57,633 bases of DNA from an uncultured Bifidobacterium sp. (GCA_964514615.1 CAZEUE010000001.1:1-57633); one strand, 5' to 3'; shown: positions 20,423-57,633, counted from the stretch's first letter. Notes: generated by a model not told the origin, from the sequence alone. Numbers and translations: made by a program.

Positions 20423-21738
20423 GTCCCTCCTCGGGACGCCACGAGCGCCCCGGCCCGCCGGACGCCCTTCCGGGCGACGCCATGGTGCTGCGCGCGGCCG
20501 AGGAGTCGCTGGCCGGGCGCCGCGGCGGGCTGCGCCGCTTCACGCCGTTCCTCGGGCCTGCGTTCATCGCGGCCGTGGCCTACGTGGATCCGGGCAACTT
20601 CGCCACCAACATGGCCGCGGGGGCCGAATACGGGTTCCTGCTGGTGTGGGTGGTGGTTGCCGCGGTGCTGATGTCCATGATCATCCAGTCGATGTCCGCG
20701 AAGCTGGGCATCGCCTCGGGACTCAACCTGGCCGAGGCCTGTCGCGCGCGGTATCGGCGTCCCGTCGTGCGGGGGCTGTGGGTGCAGGCCGAGGTCGTGG
20801 CCATGGCCACGGACGTCGCGGAGTTCGTGGGCGCCGCACTCGGCCTGTACCTGCTCTTCGGCATTCCGCTGCTCCCCGCCGCCGTCATCACGGCCGTGGC
20901 GTCGTACGCCATCCTCGCCATGCAGGCGCGTGGGTTCCGTCGCCTCGAGGCCATCATCGCCGCCTTCGTGGGGGTGATCGTGGTGGCATTCGCCGTGCAG
21001 GTGTTCCTGGCCAGGCCATCGCCCGGGGGCGTCGCAGGGGGGCTGGTGCCGGGGTTCGAGGGCACCGGAAGCGTTCTGCTGGCCGTGGGCATCCTCGGCG
21101 CCACCGTCATGCCGCATGTCATCTACCTCCACTCCGCGCTCACCCAGCGGCGCATCCCCGTGGCCGACGCGCATGCCCGCAAGCGCCTGTTCCGGTTCGA
21201 GGTGGTCGACGTGGTGGTGGCCATGACCATCGCCGGGCTGGTGAACCTGTCGATGCTCGTGATCGCCGCCACCGCCTTCAACGCCACCGGCATGACCGAC
21301 GTGGGGGAGGACCTGACCCAGGTGTTCGAGGGACTCGGCACGGTCGTGGGGGGGCATGCGGACATCCTGTTCGGGGTTGCCCTGCTGGCATCCGGGCTGT
21401 CGTCGTCGAGCATCGGCACGCTCGCCGGGCAGGTGGTGATGGAGGGCTTCCTGCGCCGTCGCATCCCGGTGTGGCTGCGCAGGACCATCACCATGGCTCC
21501 GGCCTTCGCGGTGCTCGCGCTGGGCGTGGACCCGGTGCTCGCCCTGGTCATCTCGCAGGTCATCCTGTCGTTCGGCATCCCCTTCGCGCTGATCCCCCTG
21601 ATCCACGTCACCTCGGACCGGCGGCTGATGGGCGTGCTGGTCAACCGACGGGTCACGGTCGCGGCAGGGGTGGTCATCGCGGCCGTGGTGATTACCCTCA
21701 ACGCGGTGTTGCTGATGCTCACGTTCGGGGTCGCATGA
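20419..21738 (+). CDS. mntH: NRAMP family divalent metal (Mn2+/Fe2+) transporter
   Basis: The NRAMP signature is GPAFIAAVAYVDPGNFATNMAAGAEYGF, together with MPHVIYLHSAL. The start is GTG 20419 (coupled) or ATG 20482. Confidence 0.9.
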   Translation: MSPSSGRHERPGPPDALPGDAMVLRAAEESLAGRRGGLRRFTPFLGPAFIAAVAYVDPGNFATNMAAGAEYGFLLVWVVVAAVLMSMIIQSMSAKLGIASGLNLAEACRARYRRPVVRGLWVQAEVVAMATDVAEFVGAALGLYLLFGIPLLPAAVITAVASYAILAMQARGFRRLEAIIAAFVGVIVVAFAVQVFLARPSPGGVAGGLVPGFEGTGSVLLAVGILGATVMPHVIYLHSALTQRRIPVADAHARKRLFRFEVVDVVVAMTIAGLVNLSMLVIAATAFNATGMTDVGEDLTQVFEGLGTVVGGHADILFGVALLASGLSSSSIGTLAGQVVMEGFLRRRIPVWLRRTITMAPAFAVLALGVDPVLALVISQVILSFGIPFALIPLIHVTSDRRLMGVLVNRRVTVAAGVVIAAVVITLNAVLLMLTFGVA

Positions 21739-23102
21739 TCCGCCTGCGCGCCCTCATGGCCGTGCTGGCCGTGGTGCTCGCGTGCGCGGCGGGCGCCTCG
21801 GCGGCCCGGGTGGAGCCCGCGGACGGAGCGCGGGTGCAGGCGGCCCCCGCCGCCCTGCGCGTGGTGGTGGACGCCCCGGTGGAGCCGGCGCTGGCGCGGG
21901 CGGAGGTGCGCGGGCCGGATGGTGCGGTGGCACGGCGGGCGGTGGTCACCGGGGCCGATCCGCAGGCCATCCTCGTGCCCATCCCCGCGGATGGCCCGGG
22001 CACCTACCGGGTGGCGTGGTGGGGGCTCACGACCGACGGACATCCGGTGGCGGGGCGCACCGGGTTCTCGGTGCGCTCGAGCACGCCCGTGGCCGGGGAC
22101 GTGCAGCCGGCGGGCGCGGACGACACCTCTCCGCTGGCCATCGTCGCGCGGTTCCTCGTGCTGATCGGGGTGTTCGGCACCGCCGGGATGGCCCTTGCCC
22201 GCGAGTGGTCGATCGCGGGCGCATGGGACGCCGGCGGCACTGGCCCGCCGGGCAGCGACCATGCCGCGCAGGTGCGCGCGGCGGCCGACGCGCACGCCGC
22301 CCGGCCCCTGGGCCTCTGGTGGGCGACCTGGTGGGCCCTGCTGGGCGCGTGGATCGCCGGGCTCGTCCTCGCCCTGCCCGTGCAGGCCTGGTCCACGGGG
22401 GGCCAGTGGAGTGCGCTGCTCCGCGATTCGCGCTGGGGAACGGCCTGGATCGGGCTGCTGGTACTGGGGGTCCTCGGAGGCCTCGCCGCCGCCGTGGCGC
22501 GTCGCGCCCCGCGTTCGCTCGCGCCCTCCCCCGCGCGCATGTACGCATTGGCGGTCCCCGGCCTCCTCGGGGCGGTGCTGCTGTCGTGGTCGGGTCACGC
22601 CGCGAGCGGCTCGGACGCCACGCTCGGCGTGGCGATCGACGTCCTGCACGGATGGGCCACGGCCGCCTGGCTCGGTGGCCTGGTGATGCTGCTGGTGCTG
22701 TGCGTCCCCCTGCTCGCGGCCATGGGCGCCGGGGATCGCGTGCGGTTCGGCGCCGCGGCCGTGGTGCGGTTCTCGTCGCTGGCGGTTGCGGCCGTGGTGC
22801 TCCTGGTGATCACGGGGGTGTACCGCGCCCTCGCCGAGCTGCCGTCGCTCGAATCCCTGTGGACCACCGACTACGGGGTGGTGCTGCTGGCGAAGCTCGC
22901 GGTGTTCGCGGTGATGCTGGTGATCGCGGCATGGAACCGCGCCGTCCTGCACCCGCGGCTCGAGCGCCGGGCCCTGGGCCTCGGCGCGGGGGACGCCACC
23001 GGCACGGCGCAGCTGCGTCGCAGCGTGCGGGCCGAGGTGGCCCTCGGCACCGTGGTGATGGCGCTCGTGGCCGTGATGGTGGGCCTGATGCCCCCGACCT
23101 GA
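21735..23102 (+). CDS. CopC-CopD fusion protein (YcnJ-like copper handling/transport)
   Basis: ATG 21735 overlaps the mntH stop (ATGA). A signal peptide precedes a CopC-like beta domain (GTYRVAWWGLTTDGHPVAG.FSV), followed by about 8 TM helices of CopD type. Confidence 0.8.
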   Translation: MIRLRALMAVLAVVLACAAGASAARVEPADGARVQAAPAALRVVVDAPVEPALARAEVRGPDGAVARRAVVTGADPQAILVPIPADGPGTYRVAWWGLTTDGHPVAGRTGFSVRSSTPVAGDVQPAGADDTSPLAIVARFLVLIGVFGTAGMALAREWSIAGAWDAGGTGPPGSDHAAQVRAAADAHAARPLGLWWATWWALLGAWIAGLVLALPVQAWSTGGQWSALLRDSRWGTAWIGLLVLGVLGGLAAAVARRAPRSLAPSPARMYALAVPGLLGAVLLSWSGHAASGSDATLGVAIDVLHGWATAAWLGGLVMLLVLCVPLLAAMGAGDRVRFGAAAVVRFSSLAVAAVVLLVITGVYRALAELPSLESLWTTDYGVVLLAKLAVFAVMLVIAAWNRAVLHPRLERRALGLGAGDATGTAQLRRSVRAEVALGTVVMALVAVMVGLMPPT

Positions 23103-23119
23103 CCGGCATCATCCCGGTC

Positions 23120-24409
23120 ATGGCCGACCGGGCGGGCGCACGCGTGTACGAGGTGGACGAGGTGGTCACGGCGCTCGAGCGCGTGATCGCCCAGCACACG
23201 CGGGCGGTGTACATCCGGGGCGAGGTCGTGAACCTGCGCAGCGGGCGCGACGGGCGCGTATCGTGGTTCCGGCTGGAGGACCCGCGCGATGGGCACGACG
23301 CCCGCATCGACTGCATGGCGTTCGCCACCGACGTCGCCGATGGCCACGTGCTGGCCGACGGATCCGTGATCCAGGCGGTGGCGCGCCCGGAGTTCTCGCG
23401 CCGCGACGGGCGCCTGCAGGTGCGCCTGCGGCGCATCGAGCCCGCCGGCGAGGGCGAGATCCTCCGCCTGATCGAGGAGCGCCGCCGGCGCCTGGCGGCG
23501 GAGGGCCTGTTCGACGCCGCGCTCAAGCGACCCCTGCCATTCGTGCCGCGGGGGGTGGGGCTGGTCACCGCGGCCACGGGGGCCGCCCGTGCGGACGTGC
23601 TGCGCCGCATCGAGTCGCGCTTCCCGGTGCCCGTGGTGGTGGCGCATGCGGCGATGCAGGGGCCGGCGTGCGCAGATGAGGTGTCGCGCGCCGTGGCGGC
23701 GCTCGACGCCGACCCCCGCGTGGACGTGATCGTGATCGCCCGGGGCGGTGGCGCCCTGCAGGACCTCCTGCCGTTCAGCGATGAGCAGGTGGTGAGGGCG
23801 ATCCGCGCATCGGGTACCCCCGTGGTGGCGGGCATCGGCCACCAGCCCGACGTGACGCTGGCCTGCCGTGCTGCCGACGCCATGGCGGCCACCCCCACCG
23901 CGGCCGCCGACCTCGTGGTGCCCGATGGCGCGATGCTGCGCGACGACCTGGCGGCGCTCGGCCGCCGGGTGCGGGCGGGCGGCCGCCGGGCCGTGGACGG
24001 GGCCCGGCGCGACCTGCGCATGCTCGGCGCGCGCCCGGGCCTGGTGCGCCCGCACCAGGCCGTCGTGCACCGGCCCCGCCTGGCCGTCGCCGCCATGGGG
24101 CTCCGGCTGGCGCGCGCGGGCGCGGGTGCCACGGCCGGACCGGCCCGCGACCTGCGCGACCTCCGCGGGCGCCGGTACCGGGCCATCGCGGCTGCCCGCT
24201 CGGGCGCCACGGCGCGCCTTGCCGTGCAGTCGGCGCGCCTGCGCGCGGGTGACCCCGCGCGACCGCTGGACGACGGGTTCGCGCTGGTACGGGGCGCGGA
24301 CGGGGGCATCATCACCAGCGCGGCCGCCGCGGCCCGCGCGGGGCGCGTCACGCTGCAGTTCGGGGATGGCCAGGTTGCCGCCCGCGTGGGCGGGGAGGAG
24401 GAGGCATGA
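23120..24409 (+). CDS. xseA: Exodeoxyribonuclease VII large subunit
   Basis: An OB-fold N-terminus is followed by GVGLVTAATGAARADVL, IVIARGGGALQDLLPFSDE and GIGHQPDVTLA. Confidence 0.88.
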   Translation: MADRAGARVYEVDEVVTALERVIAQHTRAVYIRGEVVNLRSGRDGRVSWFRLEDPRDGHDARIDCMAFATDVADGHVLADGSVIQAVARPEFSRRDGRLQVRLRRIEPAGEGEILRLIEERRRRLAAEGLFDAALKRPLPFVPRGVGLVTAATGAARADVLRRIESRFPVPVVVAHAAMQGPACADEVSRAVAALDADPRVDVIVIARGGGALQDLLPFSDEQVVRAIRASGTPVVAGIGHQPDVTLACRAADAMAATPTAAADLVVPDGAMLRDDLAALGRRVRAGGRRAVDGARRDLRMLGARPGLVRPHQAVVHRPRLAVAAMGLRLARAGAGATAGPARDLRDLRGRRYRAIAAARSGATARLAVQSARLRAGDPARPLDDGFALVRGADGGIITSAAAAARAGRVTLQFGDGQVAARVGGEEEA

Positions 24410-24639
24410 GCGACGAGTCACCGGAGGCGATCCCGGCCGACATGGCGTTCGAGGACGCCATGGCCGAGCTCGAGGACTGCGTGGACCGCCTCGAATCCGG
24501 CGAGGCGGGGCTGGACGAGGCCGTGCGGCTGTTCCGGCGCGGCGCGGCGCTGCAGGCGTGGTGCGAGGCGCGCCTCGACGCCATCAGCGCGCAGATCGAG
24601 GAGCTCACGGGCGCCGAGGACGCCGACCAGCAGTCCTAG
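24406..24639 (+). CDS. xseB: Exodeoxyribonuclease VII small subunit
   Basis: The 77-aa product has FEDAMAELEDCVDRLESGEAGLDEAVRLFRRG. Its start overlaps the xseA stop. Confidence 0.9.
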   Translation: MSDESPEAIPADMAFEDAMAELEDCVDRLESGEAGLDEAVRLFRRGAALQAWCEARLDAISAQIEELTGAEDADQQS

Positions 24640-24649
24640 CCGGGGCGGA

Positions 24650-25165
24650 TCACGCCGCGTCGGTGCCCGGCCGCAGCCACAGCTGGCGGCGGGCGGTGGA
24701 GAACGGCAGCGGCGCCGGCGCCCTCATCACCGTCACGTCGTCCGCCGCCTCCCTGCGGCGCACCCATGCGCGGGCGCGCAGGTCGGTCATGCCGGCGGCG
24801 AATGCCACGCCCGCGAGGAGCGCGGCGAACTGCACCCACCCCAGCAGGGCGACGGCGATCAGCACCACGGCGAGCGCCGTGGGCACGGCCGCGCGCCGCA
24901 GCGCGGTGCCGTCGGGTTCGTCCTCGAGGTTCGCCGGGGCCGGCGGGGCATCGGCCACGGCCTTCTGCAGCCATCCGCCGCTCACCACCACCTGTGCGAG
25001 TCCGAAGACCAGCGCCACGATGATGAACGGGACGATCGCACGGGCGGGCCCACCGGCCACGAGGGCCGCGGACAGGGCCACGCCGGCAACGCCCACGGCG
25101 GTGAGCCCCCCGCCGTTGATGGCGAGGTCGCGGCAGATGGGAGTTGCGACCGGCACGGCGGGCAC
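24650..25165 (-). CDS. Hypothetical membrane protein (about 171 aa, 4 predicted TM helices)
   Basis: GTG 25165 shares one nucleotide with the TAG stop of the upstream secreted protein. The product has hydrophobic helices and no recognisable family. Confidence 0.5.
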   Translation of the reverse strand: MPAVPVATPICRDLAINGGGLTAVGVAGVALSAALVAGGPARAIVPFIIVALVFGLAQVVVSGGWLQKAVADAPPAPANLEDEPDGTALRRAAVPTALAVVLIAVALLGWVQFAALLAGVAFAAGMTDLRARAWVRRREAADDVTVMRAPAPLPFSTARRQLWLRPGTDAA

Positions 25166-26733
25166 TAAACCACAACCAGCGTCAGCGAGCGCGGCGTTCC
25201 ATTGCGGGGGGTCGCCGTGATCACCCACCGGCCGCGGCCGAGCGACGCGCCGCCGAGGCCGCCCTGCAGCACCACGGCATTCGGCCCCGCAGGGCTGCTG
25301 ACGGACAGCCCGCCCACCACGCGGGACGATCCGGCGCGCCGCGCGGTGATGCGCACGCGGCTGGCAGTGGACAGCCCGAACGTGATCCGGATGGCCTGGC
25401 CCGGCCGCACGCGCGCCGGCCGGGCGCGCAGGTCCACCACCAGCGCCGGTGCCGTGACGCCCGTGCCCGCCAATCCGGTGGCGGCCATCACCCCGGATGG
25501 CGCGATGGCGGGTTCGGCCGCCGGGTTGGTCCACTGCCACGCCACCGGCGCCACGCCGTCGTCGCCGATCGCCGCCTGCGGGGCGATGGCGGGACGCCCC
25601 GGATCGCTGATCACTCCGGGCGGGCCGAATGCGCCACCCGCGGGCCGGAGCGCGGCCTGCACCTGCGCCACGGCCCCCGACTGCGCGGGCCACGCCACCA
25701 CGGCGGCGCCGCCGCCGCTGGCGGCAAGCGACGGGGCGCCGGCCGTCGTGCCCGCCGGCGACATGTCGACGGGGGCGCTCCACGCCCCGCCCGGGGGGCG
25801 CTCGGCCACCTGCACCACGCCCGACCGGCTCCATGCCACCAGGGCTGCGCCGCGCCCGTCCATGGCGGCGCGCGCCCCCCGTGCCTGGGCCGCAGGACGC
25901 GACAGGTCGGCGGGTGCGGTCCACTCGCCGGTGATCGCCCGGGTGGCGGCCTGCGCCGTCACGGATTCTCCGCGGGTGAGGGTCCACGCGGCCACGGCGG
26001 TGCCATCGGGGGCAAGGGCAACCGATGGGTCCACCACCACGGCGGTGCTGGCAGGCGACACCGTGACCGCGGGTGAGAAGCCCCCCACGGGCCCCCGGGT
26101 GGCGGCACGAACGCGGTAGGTGCCGCCCTCGTCCTGGCGCCACACCACGATCACGCCCGTCGGCCCGCCGGCAACCGCGGGCGTGGAGGCGCGCTCACCG
26201 GGCGGCGAGACCACCACGGCCGGGGCGAAGCGGCCATCGGCCCGGCCGCAGGCGGCCCGCACCTGGGAACGCCCCTGGGCGTCGGCCGAGGTCCAGGCCA
26301 CAAGGGGCGTGCAGCCGCGTCCGAAGGCCATGCGCGGCGACGAATCCACGCGCCCGCGCGGCGACAGGGCGGCGGCACGGAGGAACCGCCGGCGCTCCGG
26401 ACGGATGGCCGCGCGCACGCGGCCGCCCTGCACCCAGGCGGCGCCCGCGCGCCCGCCGGTGGTCATCGCCACCGACACCGACGACGCCCCGCGGACGCTC
26501 CCGGGAACCCGCGTGGGCGAGTACCACGGGCCCCCGGGGGTGCGCAGGGTCACCCGCACGCCGTCCCGGGTGGCCCACGCCGCCACGGCCCGCCCGGCAT
26601 CGTTGCCGGCCACCGCGGGCGCACCGGCCCCCCGCTGGGGCGGTGCGATGGCGGTCGGCGGCAGCCAGGGACCGCTGGCGCCCGCGGCGGCCGGGCAGCA
26701 CGTGATCAGGACAATGGATGCGATGCGCAGCAC
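25165..26733 (-). CDS. Secreted or lipoprotein-like repeat protein (7-8 beta-propeller-like repeats plus a C-terminal Ig-like domain)
   Basis: GTG 26733 gives VLRIASIVLITCCPAAAGA (signal or lipobox-like LITC). About 45-aa repeats with a G.A.VAW....V.A..R..GG.WS.P pattern recur at least 7 times. The ORF-track N-terminal 400 aa is antisense to rpiR/pdxS and is discarded. Confidence 0.6.
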   Translation of the reverse strand: MLRIASIVLITCCPAAAGASGPWLPPTAIAPPQRGAGAPAVAGNDAGRAVAAWATRDGVRVTLRTPGGPWYSPTRVPGSVRGASSVSVAMTTGGRAGAAWVQGGRVRAAIRPERRRFLRAAALSPRGRVDSSPRMAFGRGCTPLVAWTSADAQGRSQVRAACGRADGRFAPAVVVSPPGERASTPAVAGGPTGVIVVWRQDEGGTYRVRAATRGPVGGFSPAVTVSPASTAVVVDPSVALAPDGTAVAAWTLTRGESVTAQAATRAITGEWTAPADLSRPAAQARGARAAMDGRGAALVAWSRSGVVQVAERPPGGAWSAPVDMSPAGTTAGAPSLAASGGGAAVVAWPAQSGAVAQVQAALRPAGGAFGPPGVISDPGRPAIAPQAAIGDDGVAPVAWQWTNPAAEPAIAPSGVMAATGLAGTGVTAPALVVDLRARPARVRPGQAIRITFGLSTASRVRITARRAGSSRVVGGLSVSSPAGPNAVVLQGGLGGASLGRGRWVITATPRNGTPRSLTLVVV

Positions 26734-26790
26734 GGGATCATCGTAGGGGCACGGGAAGGGAGGGGGCGCTCCCCGGCGAAACAGCACCAC

Positions 26791-27594
26791 ATGCCACCCG
26801 ACGCACACGAACTCGCCGAGGTCCTCCGCCGCGACTACGAGCGGTTCAGCCCCGCGCAGCAGGCACTGGCCCGCTACCTGGTGGATCACCTTGCGGAGCT
26901 TCCCCTGGTATCCGCCCACGAGGTCGCGCAGGCCGCGCACTGCAGTCCCGCCACCGTGGTGCGGTTCGCGCAGGCCCTCGGCTACGCCGGGTATCCCGAG
27001 CTGCAGCGCACGGTGCGCCACGCGCACCGGCCCGGACTGGGCGTGCGGGCCGTGGGCGGGCCCGGCAACGGCAACCGGGTGCAGGTGCTCGATGCGGATC
27101 GCCTGGCCCTCGAGGACGTGGCCGCCCGCCTCGGGGTCGACGGCGTGCAGCCGCTGGTGACGCCGCTCGCCGCGGTGGCGCCCGTGGTCGTGGCCGGCGA
27201 CGCCGCCGCGCGCCCCGTGCTGGCCCTGCTGGAGGATCGCCTTGCGCGGGCCGGTCGCGAGGTGCTGGTGGTCGACTCGGGCGAGCCCCGGGTGCGCATG
27301 CGCCTGGGCGCGCTGGCCCGCGGCGGCGGGCTCATCGCCGTGTCGGTGGGCAAGGACACCCGCGTCGCCGAGTACGCGGTGGCTGCCGCGCGCGCGGCCG
27401 GCTCCCCGGCCGTCGCCCTGGTGGATTCCAGCCTCTCGGCTGCGGCGCGTGCCCCCGTGGTGCGCGTGGTGCCCGCGGAGGAGCGTGGCGGCGAGCCCAG
27501 CCTGACCGCCTTCGTCGCGGTGGCGCAGGCGCTGGCCCACGGGCTGGCGGCGCACCAGGTTCCGCGCAGGACCCTGACGGCCATCCCCGCTTAG
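26791..27594 (+). CDS. MurR/RpiR family transcriptional regulator (HTH plus SIS domain)
   Basis: The N-terminal HTH_6-like region is FSPAQQALARYLVDH...SAHEVAQAAHCSPATVVRFAQALGYAGYPELQ, followed by a SIS-like C-terminal half. Confidence 0.8.
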   Translation: MPPDAHELAEVLRRDYERFSPAQQALARYLVDHLAELPLVSAHEVAQAAHCSPATVVRFAQALGYAGYPELQRTVRHAHRPGLGVRAVGGPGNGNRVQVLDADRLALEDVAARLGVDGVQPLVTPLAAVAPVVVAGDAAARPVLALLEDRLARAGREVLVVDSGEPRVRMRLGALARGGGLIAVSVGKDTRVAEYAVAAARAAGSPAVALVDSSLSAAARAPVVRVVPAEERGGEPSLTAFVAVAQALAHGLAAHQVPRRTLTAIPA

Positions 27595-27673
27595 CCGGTC
27601 CGGTCCGGAACCGGTGCCCGTGCGGCATCGCTCCGTTCTACACTCCCCGGGGTCCCGATCAGGAGTGGATTGA

Positions 27674-28588
27674 GTGAGCGACGACGTCGCAGGCAACGGC
27701 GCCCAGGGCGCCACCGGAACGGACGCGGTGAAAGCCGGCCTTGCCCGCATGCTCAAGGGTGGCGTCATCATGGACGTCGTCACGCCCGAGCAGGCCAAGA
27801 TCGCCGAGGACGCCGGTGCATGCGCCGTGATGGCGCTCGAGCGCATTCCCGCCGAGATCCGCAAGATGGGCGGCGTGGCGCGCATGAGCGACCCCGAGAT
27901 GATCATGGGCATCCAGGAGGCCGTGACCATCCCCGTCATGGCCAAGTGCCGCATCGGGCACCACCTCGAAGCCCAGGTCCTGCAGTCGCTCGAAATCGAT
28001 TACATCGACGAGTCCGAGGTGCTCACCCCGGCCGACGAGGCCAGCCACGTGGACAAGCGCGCCTTCACCGTGCCGTTCGTGTGCGGCGCCACCAACCTCG
28101 GCGAGGCCCTGCGGCGCATCGCCGAGGGCGCCGCGATGATCCGCACCAAGGGGGAGGCCGGCACGGGCAACGTGGTCGAGGCCGTGCGCCACATGAAGAC
28201 CATCACGCAGGACATCCGCCGGGTCGTCACCGCCACGGCCGAGGAGCGCTTCGCCATCGCCAAGGAGATGGCCGCACCCCTCGAGCTGATCGAGTGGGTG
28301 GGCGAGCACGGGCGCCTCCCGGTGGTGAACTTCTCGGCTGGCGGCATTGCCACCCCGGCCGACGCCGCCCTGATGATGTACCTGGGCGCCGAGGGAGTGT
28401 TCGTGGGCAGCGGCATCTTCATGAGCGAGGACCCGCCGGCCCGCGCCCGCGCCATCGTGGAGGCCACCACGCACTGGGACGACCCCTCCGTGGTGGCCCG
28501 GGTATCGCGCGGACTGCGCGAGGCCATGCCGGGCATCGAGATCGGCGAGCTCGGCGAGGCCGGGCTGCTGCAGACCCGGGGCTGGTGA
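27674..28588 (+). CDS. pdxS: Pyridoxal 5'-phosphate synthase lyase subunit PdxS
   Basis: GTG 27674 lies 8 nt after AGGAG. Motifs are [22 protein letters not shown] and [18 protein letters not shown]. Confidence 0.96.
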
Positions 28589-51111: not shown

Positions 51112-51141
51112 TTGACGCACCGCGGGGCCGTCGTGTAGCGT
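51112..51141 (+). promoter_or_regulatory. Candidate sigma-70-type promoter for the riboswitch-led operon
   Basis: TTGACG (51112-51117) and TAGCGT (51136-51141) are separated by an 18-nt spacer. This places a start site a few nt before the riboswitch P1 helix. Confidence 0.4.
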
Positions 51142-51151
51142 CCCGCCCGCT

Positions 51152-51258
51152 TGACGCATCAAGAGCGGTGGAGGGACATGGCCCTGTGAAACCGCGGCAA
51201 CCAGCGCGATAGCGCCAGGTGCCAATTCCTGCAGGCATTCGTGCCTGGGAGATGCACG
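51152..51258 (+). promoter_or_regulatory. SAM-I (S-box) riboswitch aptamer
   Basis: P1 is formed by GCATC (51156-51160) and GATGC (51251-51255). The conserved core is ATCAAGAGCGGTGGAGGGACATGGCCCTGTGAAACCGCGGCAACC ... GGTGCCAATTCCTGCAGG ... GGGAGATGC, which matches the S-box consensus blocks (AGAG.GG.GGAGGGA..GGCCC..GAA.CC..GCAACC, GGTGC.AATTCC, AGATG). Confidence 0.85.
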
Positions 51259-51290
51259 GGGCACATGCCTGGACATACCACGGCGCCCTC

Positions 51291-51315
51291 GGACTCCCGG
51301 CAACGAAAGGAGTTC
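51291..51315 (+). promoter_or_regulatory. Candidate SD-sequestering hairpin (riboswitch expression platform)
   Basis: GGACTCC (51291-51297) can pair with GGAGTTC (51309-51315) in 7 bp including one G-U. This would occlude the SD AAGGAG (51307-51312) that precedes ATG 51320. Confidence 0.4.
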
Positions 51316-51319
51316 GAGG

Positions 51320-52591
51320 ATGGGACATCATCATCAAGGCCGGGTCACGGGTGCCCGTGGCCTCCGGTGCAAGGAATGCGGTGAGGAGCTCCCGCTCGGG
51401 GCGTCATACGCCTGCGAGTTCTGCTTCGGCCCGCTCGAGGTGGTCTACGACCGCGACCACCTGCGCGCATCCGTGACGCGCGAATCCATCGCGGCGGGGC
51501 CGCCGTCCATCTGGCGGTACGCCGACCTGCTGCCGTGCGCCCCCGAGGACCCCACCGCGGGTCTTCCCGTGGGGCTGAGCCCCCTGGTGCGGGCGCCGCG
51601 CCTGGCCGAGCGGCTGGGCCTGGGCGAGGTCTGGGTGAAGAATGAGACGGCGAACCCCACGCACTCGTTCAAGGACCGCGTGGTCAGCGTGGCCCTGCAG
51701 AAGGCCCGCGAGCTGGGGTACGAGGTGGCCGCGTGCGCGTCCACGGGCAACCTCGCGCAGTCGGTGGCCGCCCATGCGGCCGCGGCGGGCATGCGCAGCT
51801 ACGTCTTCGTGCCCGCCGACCTGGAGCACCAGAAGATCATCGCCACGGGCATATACGGCTGCACGCTGGTGGCCGTCGATGGCACGTACGACGATGTCAA
51901 CCGGCTGTGCATGGAGTTGGCCGCCGACCGTCCGTGGGCCTTCGTGAACGTCAACGTGCGCCCGTACTACAGCGAGGGCTCGAAGACGCTCGCCTATGAG
52001 ACCGCCGAGCAGCTGGGGTGGACGCTTCCTGATCGCTGCATCGTGCCGATCGCCTCGGGGTCCCTGTACACCAAGATCCACCGCGGCTTCACGGAGCTGA
52101 TCGACCTCGGGCTGGTGCAGGGCGGGGTGCCGGCGATGAACGGCGCGCAGGCCCGGGGCTGCGGACCCGTGGCGGCCGCATACGAGGCCGGCCTGGACTT
52201 CGTCGCCCCGGTGCGCCCGGACACGATCGCCAAGAGCCTGGCCATCGGGAATCCCGCCGACGGCCTGTTCGCGCTGGACGTGGCCCGGGGCACGGGCGGT
52301 GGAATCGACGCCGTGTCCGAGCAGGAGATCACCGAGGGCATCCAGCTGCTGGCCGAGACAACCGGCATCTTCACCGAGACCGCCGGGGGCGTCACCACCG
52401 CGGTGCTGCGCCGCCTTGCCGAGCGCGGCGACATCGGGCCCGACGAGCGGGTGGTCATCTACATCACGGGCGACGGCCTCAAGACCCTCGACGCCGTGGC
52501 CGATCGGGTGGAACCGGTCACCATCTCACCCACGGTGGATGCCTTTGAGTCCGCCGTCGGCACCACGACCCGCCTGGAGGCCAACCGATGA
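51320..52591 (+). CDS. Threonine synthase-like PLP enzyme with an N-terminal zinc ribbon (candidate MetM-type homocysteine synthase)
   Basis: It has CKECGEELPLGASYACEFCFG and the PLP-lysine motif NPTHSFKDRV, and is a fold-type II PLP enzyme of ThrC length (423 aa). The functional assignment comes from the SAM riboswitch and the adjacent sulfur carrier. Confidence 0.75.
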   Translation: MGHHHQGRVTGARGLRCKECGEELPLGASYACEFCFGPLEVVYDRDHLRASVTRESIAAGPPSIWRYADLLPCAPEDPTAGLPVGLSPLVRAPRLAERLGLGEVWVKNETANPTHSFKDRVVSVALQKARELGYEVAACASTGNLAQSVAAHAAAAGMRSYVFVPADLEHQKIIATGIYGCTLVAVDGTYDDVNRLCMELAADRPWAFVNVNVRPYYSEGSKTLAYETAEQLGWTLPDRCIVPIASGSLYTKIHRGFTELIDLGLVQGGVPAMNGAQARGCGPVAAAYEAGLDFVAPVRPDTIAKSLAIGNPADGLFALDVARGTGGGIDAVSEQEITEGIQLLAETTGIFTETAGGVTTAVLRRLAERGDIGPDERVVIYITGDGLKTLDAVADRVEPVTISPTVDAFESAVGTTTRLEANR

Positions 52592-52860
52592 GCGTGACCG
52601 TGCGCATTCCGTCCCCGCTCCGTCCCCTCACCGGCGGCGCCGGCACGGTGGAGTGCAGCCCCGGGACGGTGGGGGCCATCATCGATCAGCTCGAGGCCGG
52701 CCATCCCGGCTTTCGCGATCGCGTCACGCAGGACGGGCAGCTGCGTCGGTTCGTGAACGTCTTCGTCGCGGGCCAGGACGTGCGCTTCGAGCAGGGCATC
52801 GACACCGACGTCGCGGACGGCCAGGAGGTCACCATCCTGCCGGCCGTGGCCGGGGGCTGA
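52588..52860 (+). CDS. ThiS/MoaD family sulfur carrier protein (C-terminal Gly-Gly)
   Basis: The 90-aa product starts at an ATG overlapping the upstream stop (ATGA) and ends ...ILPAVAGG-stop. It has the beta-grasp length and the pattern VRIPSPLRPLTGG...FVNVFV.G. Confidence 0.8.
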   Translation: MSVTVRIPSPLRPLTGGAGTVECSPGTVGAIIDQLEAGHPGFRDRVTQDGQLRRFVNVFVAGQDVRFEQGIDTDVADGQEVTILPAVAGG

Positions 52861-53714
52861 GCACCTCGCGCACCGCGTTCGTCACGGGCGGCACCGGCCT
52901 CGTGGGCGGTGCGCTCGTCGAGGCCCTGGTCGCCCAGGGCGTCGAGGTGACCGCCCTCGCCCGCGGGTCGGCGGGCGCGGAGCGCCTGGCGCAGGCCGGC
53001 GCGCGCGTGGTGCGTGGTGACCTGGGGGAATCCGGGCGGTGGGGCGCGCGCGCGGCGGATGCCGAGGTGGTGTTCCATCTCGCACTGCCCCGCTTGATTC
53101 CCCCGGTGCGCGGCAGGCATGTGCGGCGGGCCGCGCGCGAGGCGCGTGCCGGGGCCGAGGTGGTGCTCGAGCAGGCCGCGGGCCGCCCCATCGTCATGGC
53201 CTCGTGCGCGATCGCCGACCAGCGCGGGCCGCTCGACATCGCGCGTCCGGCACGGGCCGCCGAGCAGGTGCTGGCGCAGGGCGATGCGCGCGCCGTTCGC
53301 CTGCCATGGGCCTATGGGCCCTCGGGGTTCATCTGCGACATCTCGCGCGGCCTTCAACTGCGCCGCTTCCGCATGGTCGGCCCGGCGGGCAACCGCATTG
53401 CCCTGATCAGCGCGCATGACGCGGCGAACGCCCTGGCGCTGGCTGCGGGCGCGCCCGCGGGCACGTACTGCGTGGCGGAGGAGTCGTGTCCCACGCAGGA
53501 GGAGCTGGTGGCCCACATGTGCGCGGCGCGCGGGGCCACACGGCCGGACCACCTGCCGCCGCGCATGGCGGGCCTGGGCATGGGCGCGGTGGTGGTGCAG
53601 GCGATCACGGCCGACCAGCGGATCGATCCGGCGCCGCCGCCGGGATTCACCTGCGCATCACGCTGGGATCGGGACATGATGCCTGCCCTCGGTGGCGAGG
53701 AGAGCCCGCGCTGA
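52857..53714 (+). CDS. NAD-dependent epimerase/dehydratase family (atypical SDR) protein; start codon uncertain
   Basis: The Rossmann motif AFVTGGTGLVGGALVEAL begins 7 codons after the sulfur-carrier stop. The only in-frame candidate start that keeps the motif is CTG 52857, which overlaps the TGA. There is no ATG, GTG or TTG before the motif short of a GTG more than 100 nt inside the carrier gene. Confidence 0.55.
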   Translation: MSTSRTAFVTGGTGLVGGALVEALVAQGVEVTALARGSAGAERLAQAGARVVRGDLGESGRWGARAADAEVVFHLALPRLIPPVRGRHVRRAAREARAGAEVVLEQAAGRPIVMASCAIADQRGPLDIARPARAAEQVLAQGDARAVRLPWAYGPSGFICDISRGLQLRRFRMVGPAGNRIALISAHDAANALALAAGAPAGTYCVAEESCPTQEELVAHMCAARGATRPDHLPPRMAGLGMGAVVVQAITADQRIDPAPPPGFTCASRWDRDMMPALGGEESPR

Positions 53715-53767
53715 TCGCACCCGGGGTCCCGGCGGTGGTCTATCCTCCGCCCGGAAGCCTCGAATCC

Positions 53768-55588
53768 ATGCCCGACCTTTCCCCACAGCCCGCGGGGGGC
53801 GATCCCCCGCCCCTTGACGTCGTCCCGGGCGGCCAGCCGCCCGCGCTTCCGGCCGATGAGGCCGAGCGGCTCGCCGACCTCCGCGCGCTCGGGGCGCTCG
53901 ATTCGGGCCCCGACCCGGATATCGATTCGCTGGTCGACCTGGCGGCGCTCATCGCCGACACGCGTATCGCGCTCCTCAGCCTCGTGGACGAGCACGAGCA
54001 GGTCTTCAAGTCGTCCGTGGGCCTCGACGTCGAACGCCTCCCGCGCGAGACGTCGTTCTGCGGGCACGCGATCCTCGACGGCGCACACCCCATGGTGGTG
54101 CCGGATGCCACCCTCGACACGCGCTTCGCCGACAACCCCCTGGTCACCGATGGGCCGGTGGGCTTCTACGCCGGGGTGCCCATCCTCACGTCACAGGGGC
54201 ACGCCATCGGCACCCTGTGCGTGGTGGACGACTCCCCCCGCGACCTCAGCGACCGCCAGCTGGCGGCGCTGGGCCGGCTTGCCGCGCAGGCGGCGGGGAT
54301 CCTCGAGGCGCGCGGGCGCAGCGCGGCGGAGCGCCGCCGTGCCGCAGCCCACGAGGGCGACATCGACCCGAGGACCGGCCTGCTCCTGCGCGACGCCCTC
54401 GTGCAGTCGCTCTCCGGGGCACCCCTGCCCCCATTGTCGTCGGCCATCGCGTTGCGCATCGACGAGATCGACGCGACGGCGGGTCGCGCGGGCCTGCTCG
54501 CGGACGGGGCCATCGAGGCCGTCGGCGGCGCCATCAGCGCCTGCCTGCCCCCTGCGGCGCGCCTCGGCCGATCGTTCGGCACCTTCGTGGTGATGCTGCC
54601 GGGCGTCGACGGCGCGGCCGCCCGCGCCGTGGTCGCCTCCATCCGCAACCGCATGCGGGGAGCGGTCATCGTGGGTGAGCGGACGTCGCTGCACGTGGGG
54701 GTGACCGCCGGCGTGGCCACGGCCGGGCATGCCACCACGGTGGGGGCGGAGGACCTCATCGCCGCCGCGGAGGACGCCCTGCAGCAGTCGGAGACCTTCG
54801 GCATCACGTGCTTCGTCCTCGACGACGACGCCCGCGAGGCGCGGGCCCGGACGGCGGCCATCCGCTCCGCCCTCGGCGACGCCGTCGCCCAGGGGCAGCT
54901 GGTGGTGCACTACCAGCCCATCGTGGCGCTGCCATCCCGCGAGGTGGTGGGGGCCGAGGCGCTGGTGCGCTGGCGGCACCCCGGTCTCGGCCTGCTCGGA
55001 CCGAACGAGTTCATCCCCTTCGCCGAGGACATGGGGATCGTCCAGGAGATCGACCGGTACGTGCTGCGGCGCGCCCTCAACGACCTCAGCCACGGGCGCA
55101 CCCCCGGACGGGAGGTCAGCGTCAACCTCTCGCCCGTGAGCGTCCGGCCTTCGTTGCCGGAGGTGGTGGCGTCGGACCTGCGCGAGGCGCGCGTGCCCCC
55201 GTCGTCGCTGGTGCTGGAGCTCACCGAGCGCGTGCGGTTCGACCGCGACCCCGATGTGGTGGAGATCCTGCGCGCGGTGGGCGACGTGGGCGTGCAGGTG
55301 GCCATCGACGACTTCGGGGCGGGCACCACGTCACTCGCCCACCTGCGGGCCCTGCCGGTGTCGCGGCTCAAGCTCGACCGGTCTCTCACCGCGGACCTCA
55401 CGGGCCCGGATGCCGATCGCGCCCGCGTGGTGGTGCGGACGCTGGTGGAGCTTGCCGGGCACCTCGGGCTCGAGGTGGTGGCCGAGGGCATCGAGACCGA
55501 GGGCCAGGCACAGGTGGTGTCCGACCAGGGCGTGCCGTTGGCGCAGGGATTCCTGTTCGGCCGCCCGGGCCCGCTGAGCGAGGCCTGA
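53768..55588 (+). CDS. GAF / degenerate GGDEF / EAL domain protein (probable c-di-GMP phosphodiesterase)
   Basis: The GAF-like N-terminus contains FCGHAILDG...FYAGVPI. The GGDEF position reads LGRSFGTF, so it is degenerate. The EAL motifs are intact (EALVRW, DDFGAGTTSL, LKLDRSL, EGIET, QGFLFGRP). Confidence 0.85.
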   Translation: MPDLSPQPAGGDPPPLDVVPGGQPPALPADEAERLADLRALGALDSGPDPDIDSLVDLAALIADTRIALLSLVDEHEQVFKSSVGLDVERLPRETSFCGHAILDGAHPMVVPDATLDTRFADNPLVTDGPVGFYAGVPILTSQGHAIGTLCVVDDSPRDLSDRQLAALGRLAAQAAGILEARGRSAAERRRAAAHEGDIDPRTGLLLRDALVQSLSGAPLPPLSSAIALRIDEIDATAGRAGLLADGAIEAVGGAISACLPPAARLGRSFGTFVVMLPGVDGAAARAVVASIRNRMRGAVIVGERTSLHVGVTAGVATAGHATTVGAEDLIAAAEDALQQSETFGITCFVLDDDAREARARTAAIRSALGDAVAQGQLVVHYQPIVALPSREVVGAEALVRWRHPGLGLLGPNEFIPFAEDMGIVQEIDRYVLRRALNDLSHGRTPGREVSVNLSPVSVRPSLPEVVASDLREARVPPSSLVLELTERVRFDRDPDVVEILRAVGDVGVQVAIDDFGAGTTSLAHLRALPVSRLKLDRSLTADLTGPDADRARVVVRTLVELAGHLGLEVVAEGIETEGQAQVVSDQGVPLAQGFLFGRPGPLSEA

Positions 55589-55590
55589 CC

Positions 55591-55607
55591 GCGCGCCGGC
55601 GGCGCGC
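55591..55607. terminator. Candidate bidirectional hairpin between convergent c-di-GMP genes
   Basis: GCGCGCC-GGC-GGCGCGC forms a perfect 7-bp stem with a 3-nt loop inside the 24-nt gap. There is no U tract. Confidence 0.3.
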
Positions 55608-55612
55608 CCGCG

Positions 55613-56716
55613 CTACCGCGCCGCGGTGATCACCCGGGCCCGCCCGCCCTTCTTCGCGGCGTAGAGCGCGTCGTCCGCGGCGTTGAGCGCCACCTGGGGG
55701 TCGGTGCCCGGCGGGCACCCCGCCACCCCGGCGCTCGCGGTCTGGTGCATGGGCACGAGGGCGATGAGCCGCTCGGCCACGGCGCGGGCGTCGTCGACGT
55801 CGCCCTCCACGATCAGGCCGAACTCCTCGCCGCCGATGCGCGCCAGCACGTCGCGCTCGCGAATGGCGTCCATCCATGCCGCGGCCGTCGCCTCGAGCAG
55901 GCGGTCGCCGGCGTCGTGCCCACGGGAGTCGTTGAAGGCCTTGAACCGGTCGAGGTCGATGATGGCCACGGCCAGTGGACGCCCCGCGCCGGCGCCCGCC
56001 ATCGTGCCGCGCCGGCGCAGAACCGCCATGAACACCCGGCGATTGGGAAGGCCGGTCAGGACGTCGCGCGATGCCGCGTCGGTGGCCAGGCGCAGCGCGG
56101 TGGCCACGAAGATGATGATCGTCAGGACCACGATGGTGAGCACGTACGACTGCGTGCTGTAGTGGTCCTCGCCCAGCAGGAACTGATCGAGCCACGGCGG
56201 CAGGAGTATGAGCCCGGCGGTGAGGGCAAGCGCGAGGAGCAGCTGTCCGGGCGGGCCGTACAGTGCGAGCCACGCCACCGGCAGCAGGTAGAGGATGGTG
56301 TAGCCGCTGCCCTCCGCTCCCTGGGCGTGCACCACGAGCATGACCGTGAGCAGGTAGGCGAGCGGCACCAGGAACTGCGTCCACGGGGGCCAGCGGTCCC
56401 ACGGGAACAGCACCGCCGCCACGATGGTGCCGCCGAACAGCACGGCGCCCACCACGGCGGCATCGGGGTGGGCCGCCTCGGCGTCGGCGGCCCCGGTGGG
56501 CAACAGGGTGAGCACCAGCGACAGCACTGCGATGAGCCCGAACGGCAGCACGCGCACCAGGCGGCCGTCGCTCCGGAGGGGCCCGCCGCTGCGCGAGAGG
56601 GATGCGTCACCCGCGCGGGTAAGTCGCACGGCCGCGCGGTGCGCGCCGCGCACGATCGCGCCCCGCACGCGGGCATGCAGGGGCGGGGCCGCGCCGCGCC
56701 GCGCCGTCGTGGTCAC
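55613..56716 (-). CDS. Membrane-anchored diguanylate cyclase (GGDEF domain with I-site)
   Basis: About 5-6 N-terminal TM helices are followed by DVLTGLPNRRVF and RERDVLARIGGEEFGLIV, i.e. RxxD five residues before GGEEF. I chose GTG 56716 because it overlaps the upstream stop (GTGA); later GTGs are possible. Confidence 0.8.
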   Translation of the reverse strand: MTTTARRGAAPPLHARVRGAIVRGAHRAAVRLTRAGDASLSRSGGPLRSDGRLVRVLPFGLIAVLSLVLTLLPTGAADAEAAHPDAAVVGAVLFGGTIVAAVLFPWDRWPPWTQFLVPLAYLLTVMLVVHAQGAEGSGYTILYLLPVAWLALYGPPGQLLLALALTAGLILLPPWLDQFLLGEDHYSTQSYVLTIVVLTIIIFVATALRLATDAASRDVLTGLPNRRVFMAVLRRRGTMAGAGAGRPLAVAIIDLDRFKAFNDSRGHDAGDRLLEATAAAWMDAIRERDVLARIGGEEFGLIVEGDVDDARAVAERLIALVPMHQTASAGVAGCPPGTDPQVALNAADDALYAAKKGGRARVITAAR

Positions 56717-57015
56717 TGCGGGGGGATGACGGGCAGTCCGGTGGCGTGCTGCACCGTTCCCGCACGGTGGTAGCGCAGGTCCACCACGTCCGCCTGCTGG
56801 TCGCTGTACACCCCCACCCCGGCGAGCATGGCCATCCGTCGTCCGAAACCGCGCTTGGCCCGTGGCGTGGCGGGCACGAGGGGGGTCGTGAACCTGAGCC
56901 ACCGGCCCTCCACCGTGTAGTCGGCGCCCTCCTCCCGCGGGGCGCCGTTCACCCACACCTGGAATGGGGGCTCCGCGCCCTCGGGCAGTGCGACGCTCCA
57001 GACCGGGTCATCCAT
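56713..57015 (-). CDS. Hypothetical small protein (100 aa)
   Basis: ATG 57015. I recognise no motifs, but it is translationally coupled to the downstream GGDEF gene. Confidence 0.4.
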   Translation of the reverse strand: MDDPVWSVALPEGAEPPFQVWVNGAPREEGADYTVEGRWLRFTTPLVPATPRAKRGFGRRMAMLAGVGVYSDQQADVVDLRYHRAGTVQHATGLPVIPPQ

Positions 57016-57580: not shown

Positions 57581-57633
57581 CACGCGCGGCAGGATTCGAA
57601 CCTGCGACCCCTGGCTCCGGAGGCCAGTGCTCT
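57581..57633 (-). tRNA. tRNA-Arg (anticodon CCG), 3' two-thirds; the 5' part lies outside the window
   Basis: The reverse complement reads ...GAGCA CUGGC CUCCGGA GCCAG GGGUC GCAGG UUCGAAU CCUGC CGCGCGU G. This gives an anticodon stem-loop with U33-CCG-G37, a T arm with the GGUUCGAAUCC box, a 7-nt acceptor strand and a discriminator. CCA is not encoded. Confidence 0.85.

Follow-up and report, generated by a model that had tools for sequence, protein, structure and literature searches.

A probable SAM-repressed metM–metO operon for homocysteine synthesis in a Miltoncostaeaceae-like actinobacterium

A 57,633-nucleotide stretch of DNA (GCA_964514615.1, CAZEUE010000001.1:1-57633; hereafter the window, meaning this stretch at its full length) carries towards its 3' end an S-adenosylmethionine (SAM) riboswitch followed by two overlapping genes, which encode a pyridoxal phosphate (PLP) enzyme resembling threonine synthase (ThrC) and a small sulfur carrier of the ThiS/MoaD type. 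We consider it highly probable (roughly 85%) that this unit is a SAM-repressed metM–metO operon that makes homocysteine from O-phosphohomoserine. The MetM/MetO system is already known, and is found here in a different actinobacterial class, Thermoleophilia. A first-pass annotation, made from the sequence alone, had proposed carrier-dependent homocysteine synthesis by a ThrC-like enzyme under SAM control. This proposal is supported by the conservation of the unit, the separation of its enzyme from canonical ThrC, the CysO-like carrier and the existence of a separate thrC in Nonomuraea.

The Streptomyces precedent to which that annotation pointed is real. In Streptomyces albulus, MetM converts O-phosphohomoserine and the thiocarboxylate of MetO into homocysteine, as described by Hasebe et al. 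(2024, Appl Environ Microbiol 90:e01247-24; cited in PMC12172450 and in two 2026 preprints). PMC12172450 also places a SAM riboswitch upstream of S. albulus metM and, together with the 2026 preprints, describes rescue of methionine auxotrophy by the pair. MetM is "often misannotated" as threonine synthase, and Mec and MoeZ are listed as accessory steps (GapMind 2026 preprint). The window unit shares with S. albulus a ThrC-homologous PLP enzyme annotated as threonine synthase, an adjacent carrier gene and an upstream SAM riboswitch, as well as a similar distance to Bacillus subtilis ThrC, which is reported to be 33% identical to S. albulus MetM (2026 preprint) and is 34% identical to the window enzyme. 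The riboswitch had also been put forward as direct evidence for a methionine branch; the link is indeed present, but because S. albulus metM was already known to have a SAM riboswitch (PMC12172450), it is a known feature of the system and not new evidence. The host differs, being Thermoleophilia (Miltoncostaeaceae-like) and not Streptomyces, and the features listed for the window in this comparison are a carrier that ends exactly at Gly-Gly, an ATGA overlap between metM and metO, an expression platform that sequesters the Shine-Dalgarno (SD) sequence and has no terminator, and a conserved open reading frame (ORF) of the short-chain dehydrogenase/reductase (SDR) type that overlaps the metO stop codon.

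Conservation of the enzyme and its sulfur carrier

A genome scan with one genome per species identified 566 relatives, of which the best 80 (63-95% identity) were used. With the addition of Nonomuraea, Miltoncostaea marina and one close metagenome-assembled genome (MAG), this gave 83 loci, which are given L numbers where they need to be told apart. The best 80 of the 566 belong to Miltoncostaeaceae, Thermoleophilaceae, Solirubrobacterales, Acidimicrobiia and Actinomycetes MAGs, and none of these 80 is from Streptomyces. The riboswitch, the ThrC-like gene and the carrier gene occur together in Thermoleophilia, Acidimicrobiia and Actinomycetes, and 80 of the 83 loci have a MetO-like ORF after the enzyme gene. 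Of the three that do not, two lie on contigs that stop within 150 nt of metM, and L041 alone has over 400 nt of sequence beyond metM with no MetO-like ORF detected; a SAM-I aptamer is present upstream of its metM. Homologue searches with the window protein returned only Thermoleophilia, and those with the Nonomuraea paralogue only Streptosporangiaceae. A profile of Actinomycetes members matched MAGs, and the 50%-identity representatives and clusters were Micromonosporaceae, archaeal or unnamed entries. The nearest relatives of the window protein are Thermoleophilia/Miltoncostaeaceae MAGs, with protein identities of up to 95%. Three loci whose metM genes are 88-93% identical to that of the window (L003, L011 and L021) are titled "uncultured Bifidobacterium sp.", "Bifidobacterium breve" and "Acidobacteria bacterium", titles that probably reflect mis-binning or mislabelling.

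The metM-like gene (51320-52591, plus strand) encodes a 423-aa fold-type II PLP enzyme of the ThrC family, with matches to PALP (PF00291, 7.7e-68) and to the thrC model TIGR00260 (266.6 bits against a cut-off of 167.1). Since this score lies above the cut-off, the enzyme would be automatically named threonine synthase, as had been anticipated, and all of its named database homologues carry that label. The PLP lysine is K118, within NPTHSFKDRV, and the four cysteines of the N-terminal Cys4 ribbon (C17, C20, C32 and C35) are invariant. The cysteate synthase model TIGR03844 matches weakly (79.7 bits against a cut-off of 324.9), and CysM structures match at only ~1e-6 over part of the protein.

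An identity matrix clearly separates the metM-like clade from canonical ThrC at the sequence level. Members of the riboswitch- and carrier-linked clade are 52-82% identical to one another, across classes, and canonical ThrC proteins (M. tuberculosis, B. subtilis, T. thermophilus, A. aeolicus and the thrC product of Nonomuraea) share 55-63% across phyla, whereas identity between the two groups is 33-41%. The window enzyme itself is 54% identical to the riboswitch- and carrier-linked paralogue of Nonomuraea but 34-38% identical to the solved ThrC proteins.

The separation extends to fixed motifs near the active site, where NPTG of ThrC is NPTH (or NPTN) in the clade, DRGM is DRVV, ASTGNT is ASTGNL, VN-SVNPxR is VNVNVRPYY, PVGNAGN is PIASGSL, EPASAA is ETAGGV and TGNGLKDP is TGDGLKTL. 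Residues T88, S155, R160 and N188 of T. thermophilus ThrC, which reportedly hold the substrate or product phosphate, are not conserved; the window enzyme has L145, N/V at 211-212 (with a one-residue insertion), Y217 and S246 at these positions, and the replacements are the same across the metM-like clade. Omi et al. in 2003 and Murakawa et al. in 2011 are reported to have described those residues as holding the phosphate that steers the addition of water at C-beta. If the phosphate site has been remodelled, this would be consistent with a shift in chemistry, in which beta,gamma-replacement with water gives way to gamma-replacement with a sulfur nucleophile. Overall, the window enzyme shares with canonical ThrC (TIGR00260; structures 1uim/1v7c, 2zsj, 6cgq and 2d1f) the fold, the SFKDR PLP-lysine motif and presumably O-phosphohomoserine as substrate. 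It differs from canonical ThrC not only in identity and in its replaced active-site motifs but also in an extra N-terminal region of ~60 aa bearing the Cys4 ribbon, and in having a riboswitch and a carrier instead of a hom-thrC-thrB cluster.

Both kinds of locus occur in a single genome in Nonomuraea gerenzanensis, the one genome covered by this within-genome comparison. Its first locus comprises a SAM-I riboswitch (68.7 bits), a metM-like gene and a metO-like gene, the metM-like product being the one that shares 54% identity with the window enzyme. The second lies ~2.5 Mb away on the circular record and consists of thrC (TIGR00260, 309.7 bits), thrB and rho, and this thrC-thrB-rho locus has neither a riboswitch nor a carrier gene. 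The metM-like product and the ThrC of this organism are 33% identical. The ThrC-like enzyme of Nonomuraea is thus not the housekeeping enzyme but a paralogue encoded in another context. The record in question (NZ_LT559118.1, holding L081 and L084) is filed in PLSDB as "Nonomuraea gerenzanensis plasmid I"; it is 11.85 Mb long with only 10 features annotated, and its groEL, rho and thrC-thrB genes mark it as a chromosome.

The metO-like gene (52588-52860, plus strand) encodes a 90-aa beta-grasp carrier of the ThiS/MoaD family (ThiS, PF02597, 3.9e-14) whose C-terminus reads AVAGG. The metO start and the metM stop overlap as ATGA, and metO has a separate GGAGG, located 7 nt upstream. The overlap, the fold and the Gly-Gly end had all been read correctly in the first-pass annotation. 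The carrier is CysO-like in sequence. Its best solved match is M. tuberculosis CysO (3dwg_C, E = 8.1e-24), which aligns end to end including PAVAGG, followed by a ThiS/MoaD-family protein (4n6e_B, E = 1.3e-22); in a search of the PDB, CysO scored 86.7 bits against 38-42 bits for MoaD-type chains, and SAMP1 was also far lower. The archaeal-type MoaD model TIGR01687 gave 43.7 bits, below its cut-off of 49.5. In the M. tuberculosis CysM-CysO-Mec-MoeZ system (PDB 3dwg), as is proposed here, a beta-grasp carrier with a thiocarboxylated C-terminal Gly-Gly supplies sulfur to a PLP enzyme of fold type II whose substrate is an O-phospho amino acid. The window system differs in that the partner enzyme is ThrC-like with a Cys4 ribbon and not CysM/CysK-like, in that the substrate and product would be O-phosphohomoserine and homocysteine, and in its control by a SAM riboswitch.

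The C-terminus could be read end to end in 73 carrier ORFs, 57 of which end exactly at Gly-Gly and 16 of which have one or two extra residues. The residues added are A, R, C, Q, G, M, T or AR, and the 16 extended carriers are those of L026, L039, L042, L043, L045, L047, L048, L050, L052, L053, L057, L061, L070, L076, L077 and L080. Residues past Gly-Gly imply C-terminal trimming by a Mec/JAMM-type enzyme in those lineages, and the 16 extended carriers fit the Mec trimming step that GapMind lists. Trimming is not implied in the window lineage; as the window carrier ends exactly at Gly-Gly, it would need no Mec-type enzyme.

The SAM-I leader and its expression platforms

Rfam analysis of the window identified a single riboswitch, a full-length SAM-I (S-box) aptamer at 51153-51258 on the plus strand (RF00162, E = 3.1e-18, covering model positions 1-108 of 108), whose 83.3 bits exceed the gathering score of 44.4. 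The S-box that the first-pass annotation had read by eye is thus well above threshold, and the core strings that it quoted are all present, including P1, in which GCAUC (51156-60) pairs with GAUGC (51251-55). The region had been drawn from 51112; the aptamer itself stands, while 51112-51152 is not aptamer and holds promoter-like elements (51112-51141, plus strand), namely a -35 element TTGACG (51112-51117), an 18-nt spacer and a -10 element TAGCGT of the TANNNT type (51136-51141). This arrangement is found ~10-15 nt 5' of the aptamer in the window and in 14 close relatives, with some variation in the hexamers. As a sigma-70 consensus scan did not call the elements at 51112-51141, the promoter is putative and is proposed on the basis of conservation.

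The aptamer is followed by a linker hairpin (51267-51284) and by a hairpin at 51287-51319, in which an anti-SD strand (51287-51297) pairs with 51309-51319 over 11 bp. The SD sequence AGGAG (51308-51312) lies inside this second hairpin, which ends one base before the ATG at 51320, so the suggestion that a hairpin could bury the SD held up. The sequestering hairpin appears in the unconstrained minimum free energy fold (z = -4.09 against shuffles) as well as in constrained folds with the aptamer enforced, and the lowest-energy structures predicted for the window and for most relatives contain both the aptamer and the hairpin. Across 15 relatives, the sequestering hairpin is paired in 77.8% of cells with two pairs changed on both sides, and the linker hairpin in 80% of cells with one pair changed on both sides (UA to GC or CG) in five sequences. 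The P1-P4 helices are 100% paired in 15 of 15 sequences, with a single P3 pair doubly changed (CG to AU); the covariation signal of the aptamer is small because most of its pairs never vary. An OFF state in which the aptamer and the SD-sequestering hairpin form together is therefore well supported as a predicted structure. No intrinsic terminator with a T-run is present in the window leader, and transcription attenuation was rejected for the window clade on this ground.

Candidate anti-sequestering (ON) pairings were also identified, between 51245-51251 and 51294-51300 and between 51258-51262 and 51285-51289. These are incompatible with P4/P1 and with the sequestering hairpin, and they form in 100% and 85% of cells, respectively, across the 15 relatives. 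In such an ON state, GGGAG of the aptamer would mimic the SD by pairing with the anti-SD CUCCC.

The aptamer is kept across the related loci while the expression platform differs between clades. RF00162 is above threshold in 22 of 22 related leaders scanned, and aptamer motifs are visible in other leaders. In a comparison of the window with L013-L034 and L037-L064, the window clade has the SD-sequestering hairpin, whereas other Miltoncostaeaceae, Thermoleophilaceae and Solirubrobacterales have a GC-rich hairpin followed by a T-run, which corresponds to a terminator. In Acidimicrobiia and some Actinomycetes (L049, L056, L057, L059, L063, L066-L068 and L070-L080) the aptamers lack P4, with GGUGCCAAUGCC joining the 3' strand of P1 directly. 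Seven of these P4-less aptamers were scanned and score 62-75 bits with RF00162; an assignment of the Acidimicrobiia aptamers to SAM-IV was rejected, as Rfam clan competition keeps RF00162. Some P4-less aptamers are followed by a conserved CUCGAG...CGUCGAG hairpin. The window riboswitch resembles other members of RF00162 in its full-length P1-P4, its conserved core and its position in the leader of a methionine-pathway gene, but differs from the classical Bacillus SAM-I riboswitches, which use a terminator and antiterminator, in having a translational platform that acts on the SD, while its sister clades use terminators. Since SAM control has been kept while the platform was replaced between clades, it provides independent evidence for a methionine/SAM role of the gene pair.

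Proposed mechanism and competing explanations

The mechanism that we propose builds on what is known of the S. albulus system, of SAM-I riboswitches and of the CysO/CysM pair. At high SAM, the ligand would lock P1-P4 and leave the anti-SD (51287-51297) free to pair with the SD, such that metM would not be translated. At low SAM, 51245-51262 in the 3' part of the aptamer may pair with 51285-51300 instead, which would leave the SD accessible. As metO overlaps metM, and the SDR-like ORF possibly overlaps metO in turn, repression could pass down the chain through translational coupling. A MoeZ-type E1 encoded elsewhere would adenylate and thiocarboxylate the C-terminal Gly of MetO. MetM would then form a PLP-vinylglycine intermediate from O-phosphohomoserine and add MetO-COSH at C-gamma, after which an acyl shift or hydrolysis would free homocysteine for methylation to methionine.

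Several observations weigh against this account. Folding shows no clear ON state; the aptamer with the sequestering hairpin is at or near the minimum even without ligand, and the candidate ON fold costs 3.1-4.1 kcal/mol more in the window and 2.5-17.5 kcal/mol more in 13 of 14 relatives, with the SD still predicted to be paired. The outer helix of the candidate ON fold gives little covariation signal because it is nearly invariant. An ON structure is therefore not claimed from folding, being less stable than the aptamer plus sequestering fold and leaving the SD paired; we infer a switch between folds, in which the ON state may be kinetic. Genes for a MoeZ/ThiF-type E1 and a Mec/JAMM protein are missing from the 57-kb window. 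No MoeZ-type E1 was found within 7-10 kb in the related loci either, and ORF clustering over 82 loci yielded no moeZ or mec beside the pair and only lineage-specific synteny. Orthology to S. albulus MetM rests on context and on indirect identity figures. Lastly, a Microcystis homologue that is 51.6% identical to MetM and has no riboswitch was reported to act as a threonine synthase/deaminase and not to raise methionine (PMC12172450), so members of the family need not all be homocysteine synthases.

The Microcystis result also bears on a very unlikely alternative, in which the window enzyme is a genuine threonine synthase paralogue whose SAM control balances a shared O-phosphohomoserine pool, and the carrier is an unrelated protein of the MoaD/ThiS type. 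The TIGR00260 score (266.6 against 167.1) and the name given to every named database homologue agree with this, but the 33-41% identity to functional ThrC proteins, which share 55-63% across phyla, does not, nor does the replacement of the residues equivalent to T88, S155, R160 and N188, which reportedly bind phosphate in ThrC. The tight conservation of the carrier beside the enzyme, with overlapping genes in the window clade, and a canonical Nonomuraea thrC locus that lacks both riboswitch and carrier are likewise hard to reconcile with a threonine synthase. The hom/thrC/thrB context of canonical ThrC is also absent, the neighbours running from relA to the GGDEF/EAL genes in the window and in the related loci read. 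Moreover, an OFF switch that cuts ThrC at high SAM would be the reverse of the logic in plants, where SAM activates ThrC.

The resemblance of the carrier to CysO raises a second question, that of whether the pair could be a CysM/CysO analogue that converts O-phosphoserine and the carrier thiocarboxylate into cysteine or a related thiol, SAM then serving as an overall indicator of sulfur amino acids. The nearest solved relative of the carrier was crystallised with CysM, ThrC-fold enzymes that use O-phosphoserine exist, as the weak TIGR03844 match recalls, and some Bacillus cysteine and sulfate genes are under S-box leaders. Yet that match (79.7 bits) falls far under its cut-off of 324.9, and no cysE- or serB-type neighbours were found in the window or in the related loci read. 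The homologous S. albulus pair uses O-phosphohomoserine and rescues methionine auxotrophy (PMC12172450), and we regard a cysteine-forming role as highly improbable. Less probable still is that the carrier is a MoaD or ThiS subunit, serving molybdopterin or thiazole synthesis, that lies beside a ThrC-like gene by coincidence. It belongs to the Pfam family ThiS and falls just under the TIGR01687 cut-off (43.7 against 49.5 bits), but CysO scores ~45 bits above the MoaD-type chains (86.7 against 38-42 bits), the carrier gene adjoins the ThrC-like gene in 80 of 83 loci from three classes, and no moaE, moaA/C, thiG, thiF or thiH was found in the window or in the related loci read. Homocysteine synthesis by a SAM-repressed MetM/MetO pair thus remains our preferred explanation.

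Genomic neighbourhood, a possible third cistron and wider meaning

The window has a G+C content of 73.5% and is a chromosomal housekeeping region. Its genes run from efp, biotin-carboxylase genes, dxs, recN, pyrG, an ABC-2 transporter, ctaA and pdxS through yebC, ruvC, ruvB, yajC, secDF, an ABC1 kinase gene, recJ, relA, a gene for a LytR_C protein and hyuB/hyuA to genes for a SPOR protein and a zinc-ribbon protein, both on the minus strand and directly before the riboswitch unit, so that the gene 5' of the unit is transcribed divergently. On its 3' side follow an SDR/epimerase-like gene, a GAF-GGDEF-EAL gene, a GGDEF gene, a cupin gene and a partial transfer RNA (tRNA) gene. The flanking gene order is the same in one close MAG and in cultured Miltoncostaea marina, whose genome CP064655.1 is the closest complete one. 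Among the called ORFs of the 57-kb window there is no hom, thrB, moa, thi, moeZ (ThiF-type E1) or mec (JAMM) gene, in line with the earlier observation that hom, thrB, moaE and thiG neighbours are absent.

The GAF-GGDEF-EAL (plus strand) and membrane GGDEF (minus strand) genes at 53486-56956 form a pair for the turnover of cyclic di-GMP, and nothing evident ties them to the met unit. Three long minus-strand ORFs (21123-22952, 22871-24421 and 25165-27954) with high third-position GC have no Pfam match, and gene calls are uncertain across this 7-kb stretch (21123-27954). The tRNA gene at 57581-57633 (minus strand) is cut by the window end and lacks its 5' part (RF00005, 38.6 bits).

The ORF that follows metO (52857-53714, plus strand) is a possible third cistron. 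It encodes an NAD(P)-binding SDR/epimerase-like protein with matches to Pfam Epimerase, NAD_binding_10 and NmrA over its N-terminal part only. There is no ATG, GTG or TTG before its GxxGxxG Rossmann motif, and the apparent start, the sole candidate there, is a CTG that overlaps the metO stop codon as CTGA. Fourteen of 15 close relatives keep this CTG overlap, L004 having an overlapping GTG instead, and in Miltoncostaea marina, which also keeps it, the CTG is the called start of the gene. The ORF is listed for the window, L001-L012, L028, L082 and L083, and its synteny is limited to 23 loci, apparently all Miltoncostaeaceae. A MetO-SDR fusion by a +1 frameshift at GGC-UGA was judged unlikely, since the shift would leave the glycine tRNA unable to pair again.

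It is possible, although we think it unlikely, that in this Miltoncostaeaceae-like clade the SAM-controlled metM, metO and SDR-like genes form a translation-linked chain of three. If so, all three proteins would come under one translational riboswitch, with termination on each gene coupled to re-initiation on the next, and the thiocarboxylate route to methionine would gain a new accessory component in the SDR-like protein. Both the pathway and its link to a riboswitch have been in print since 2024, and for this reason the operon itself opens no new question; the SDR-like ORF as a third, translationally coupled cistron may be novel. More broadly, judging by the riboswitch and carrier context, the large clade named "threonine synthase" in Thermoleophilia, Acidimicrobiia and many Actinomycetes is more likely to be MetM homocysteine synthase, a re-reading that would change methionine-pathway reconstructions for these mostly uncultured lineages.

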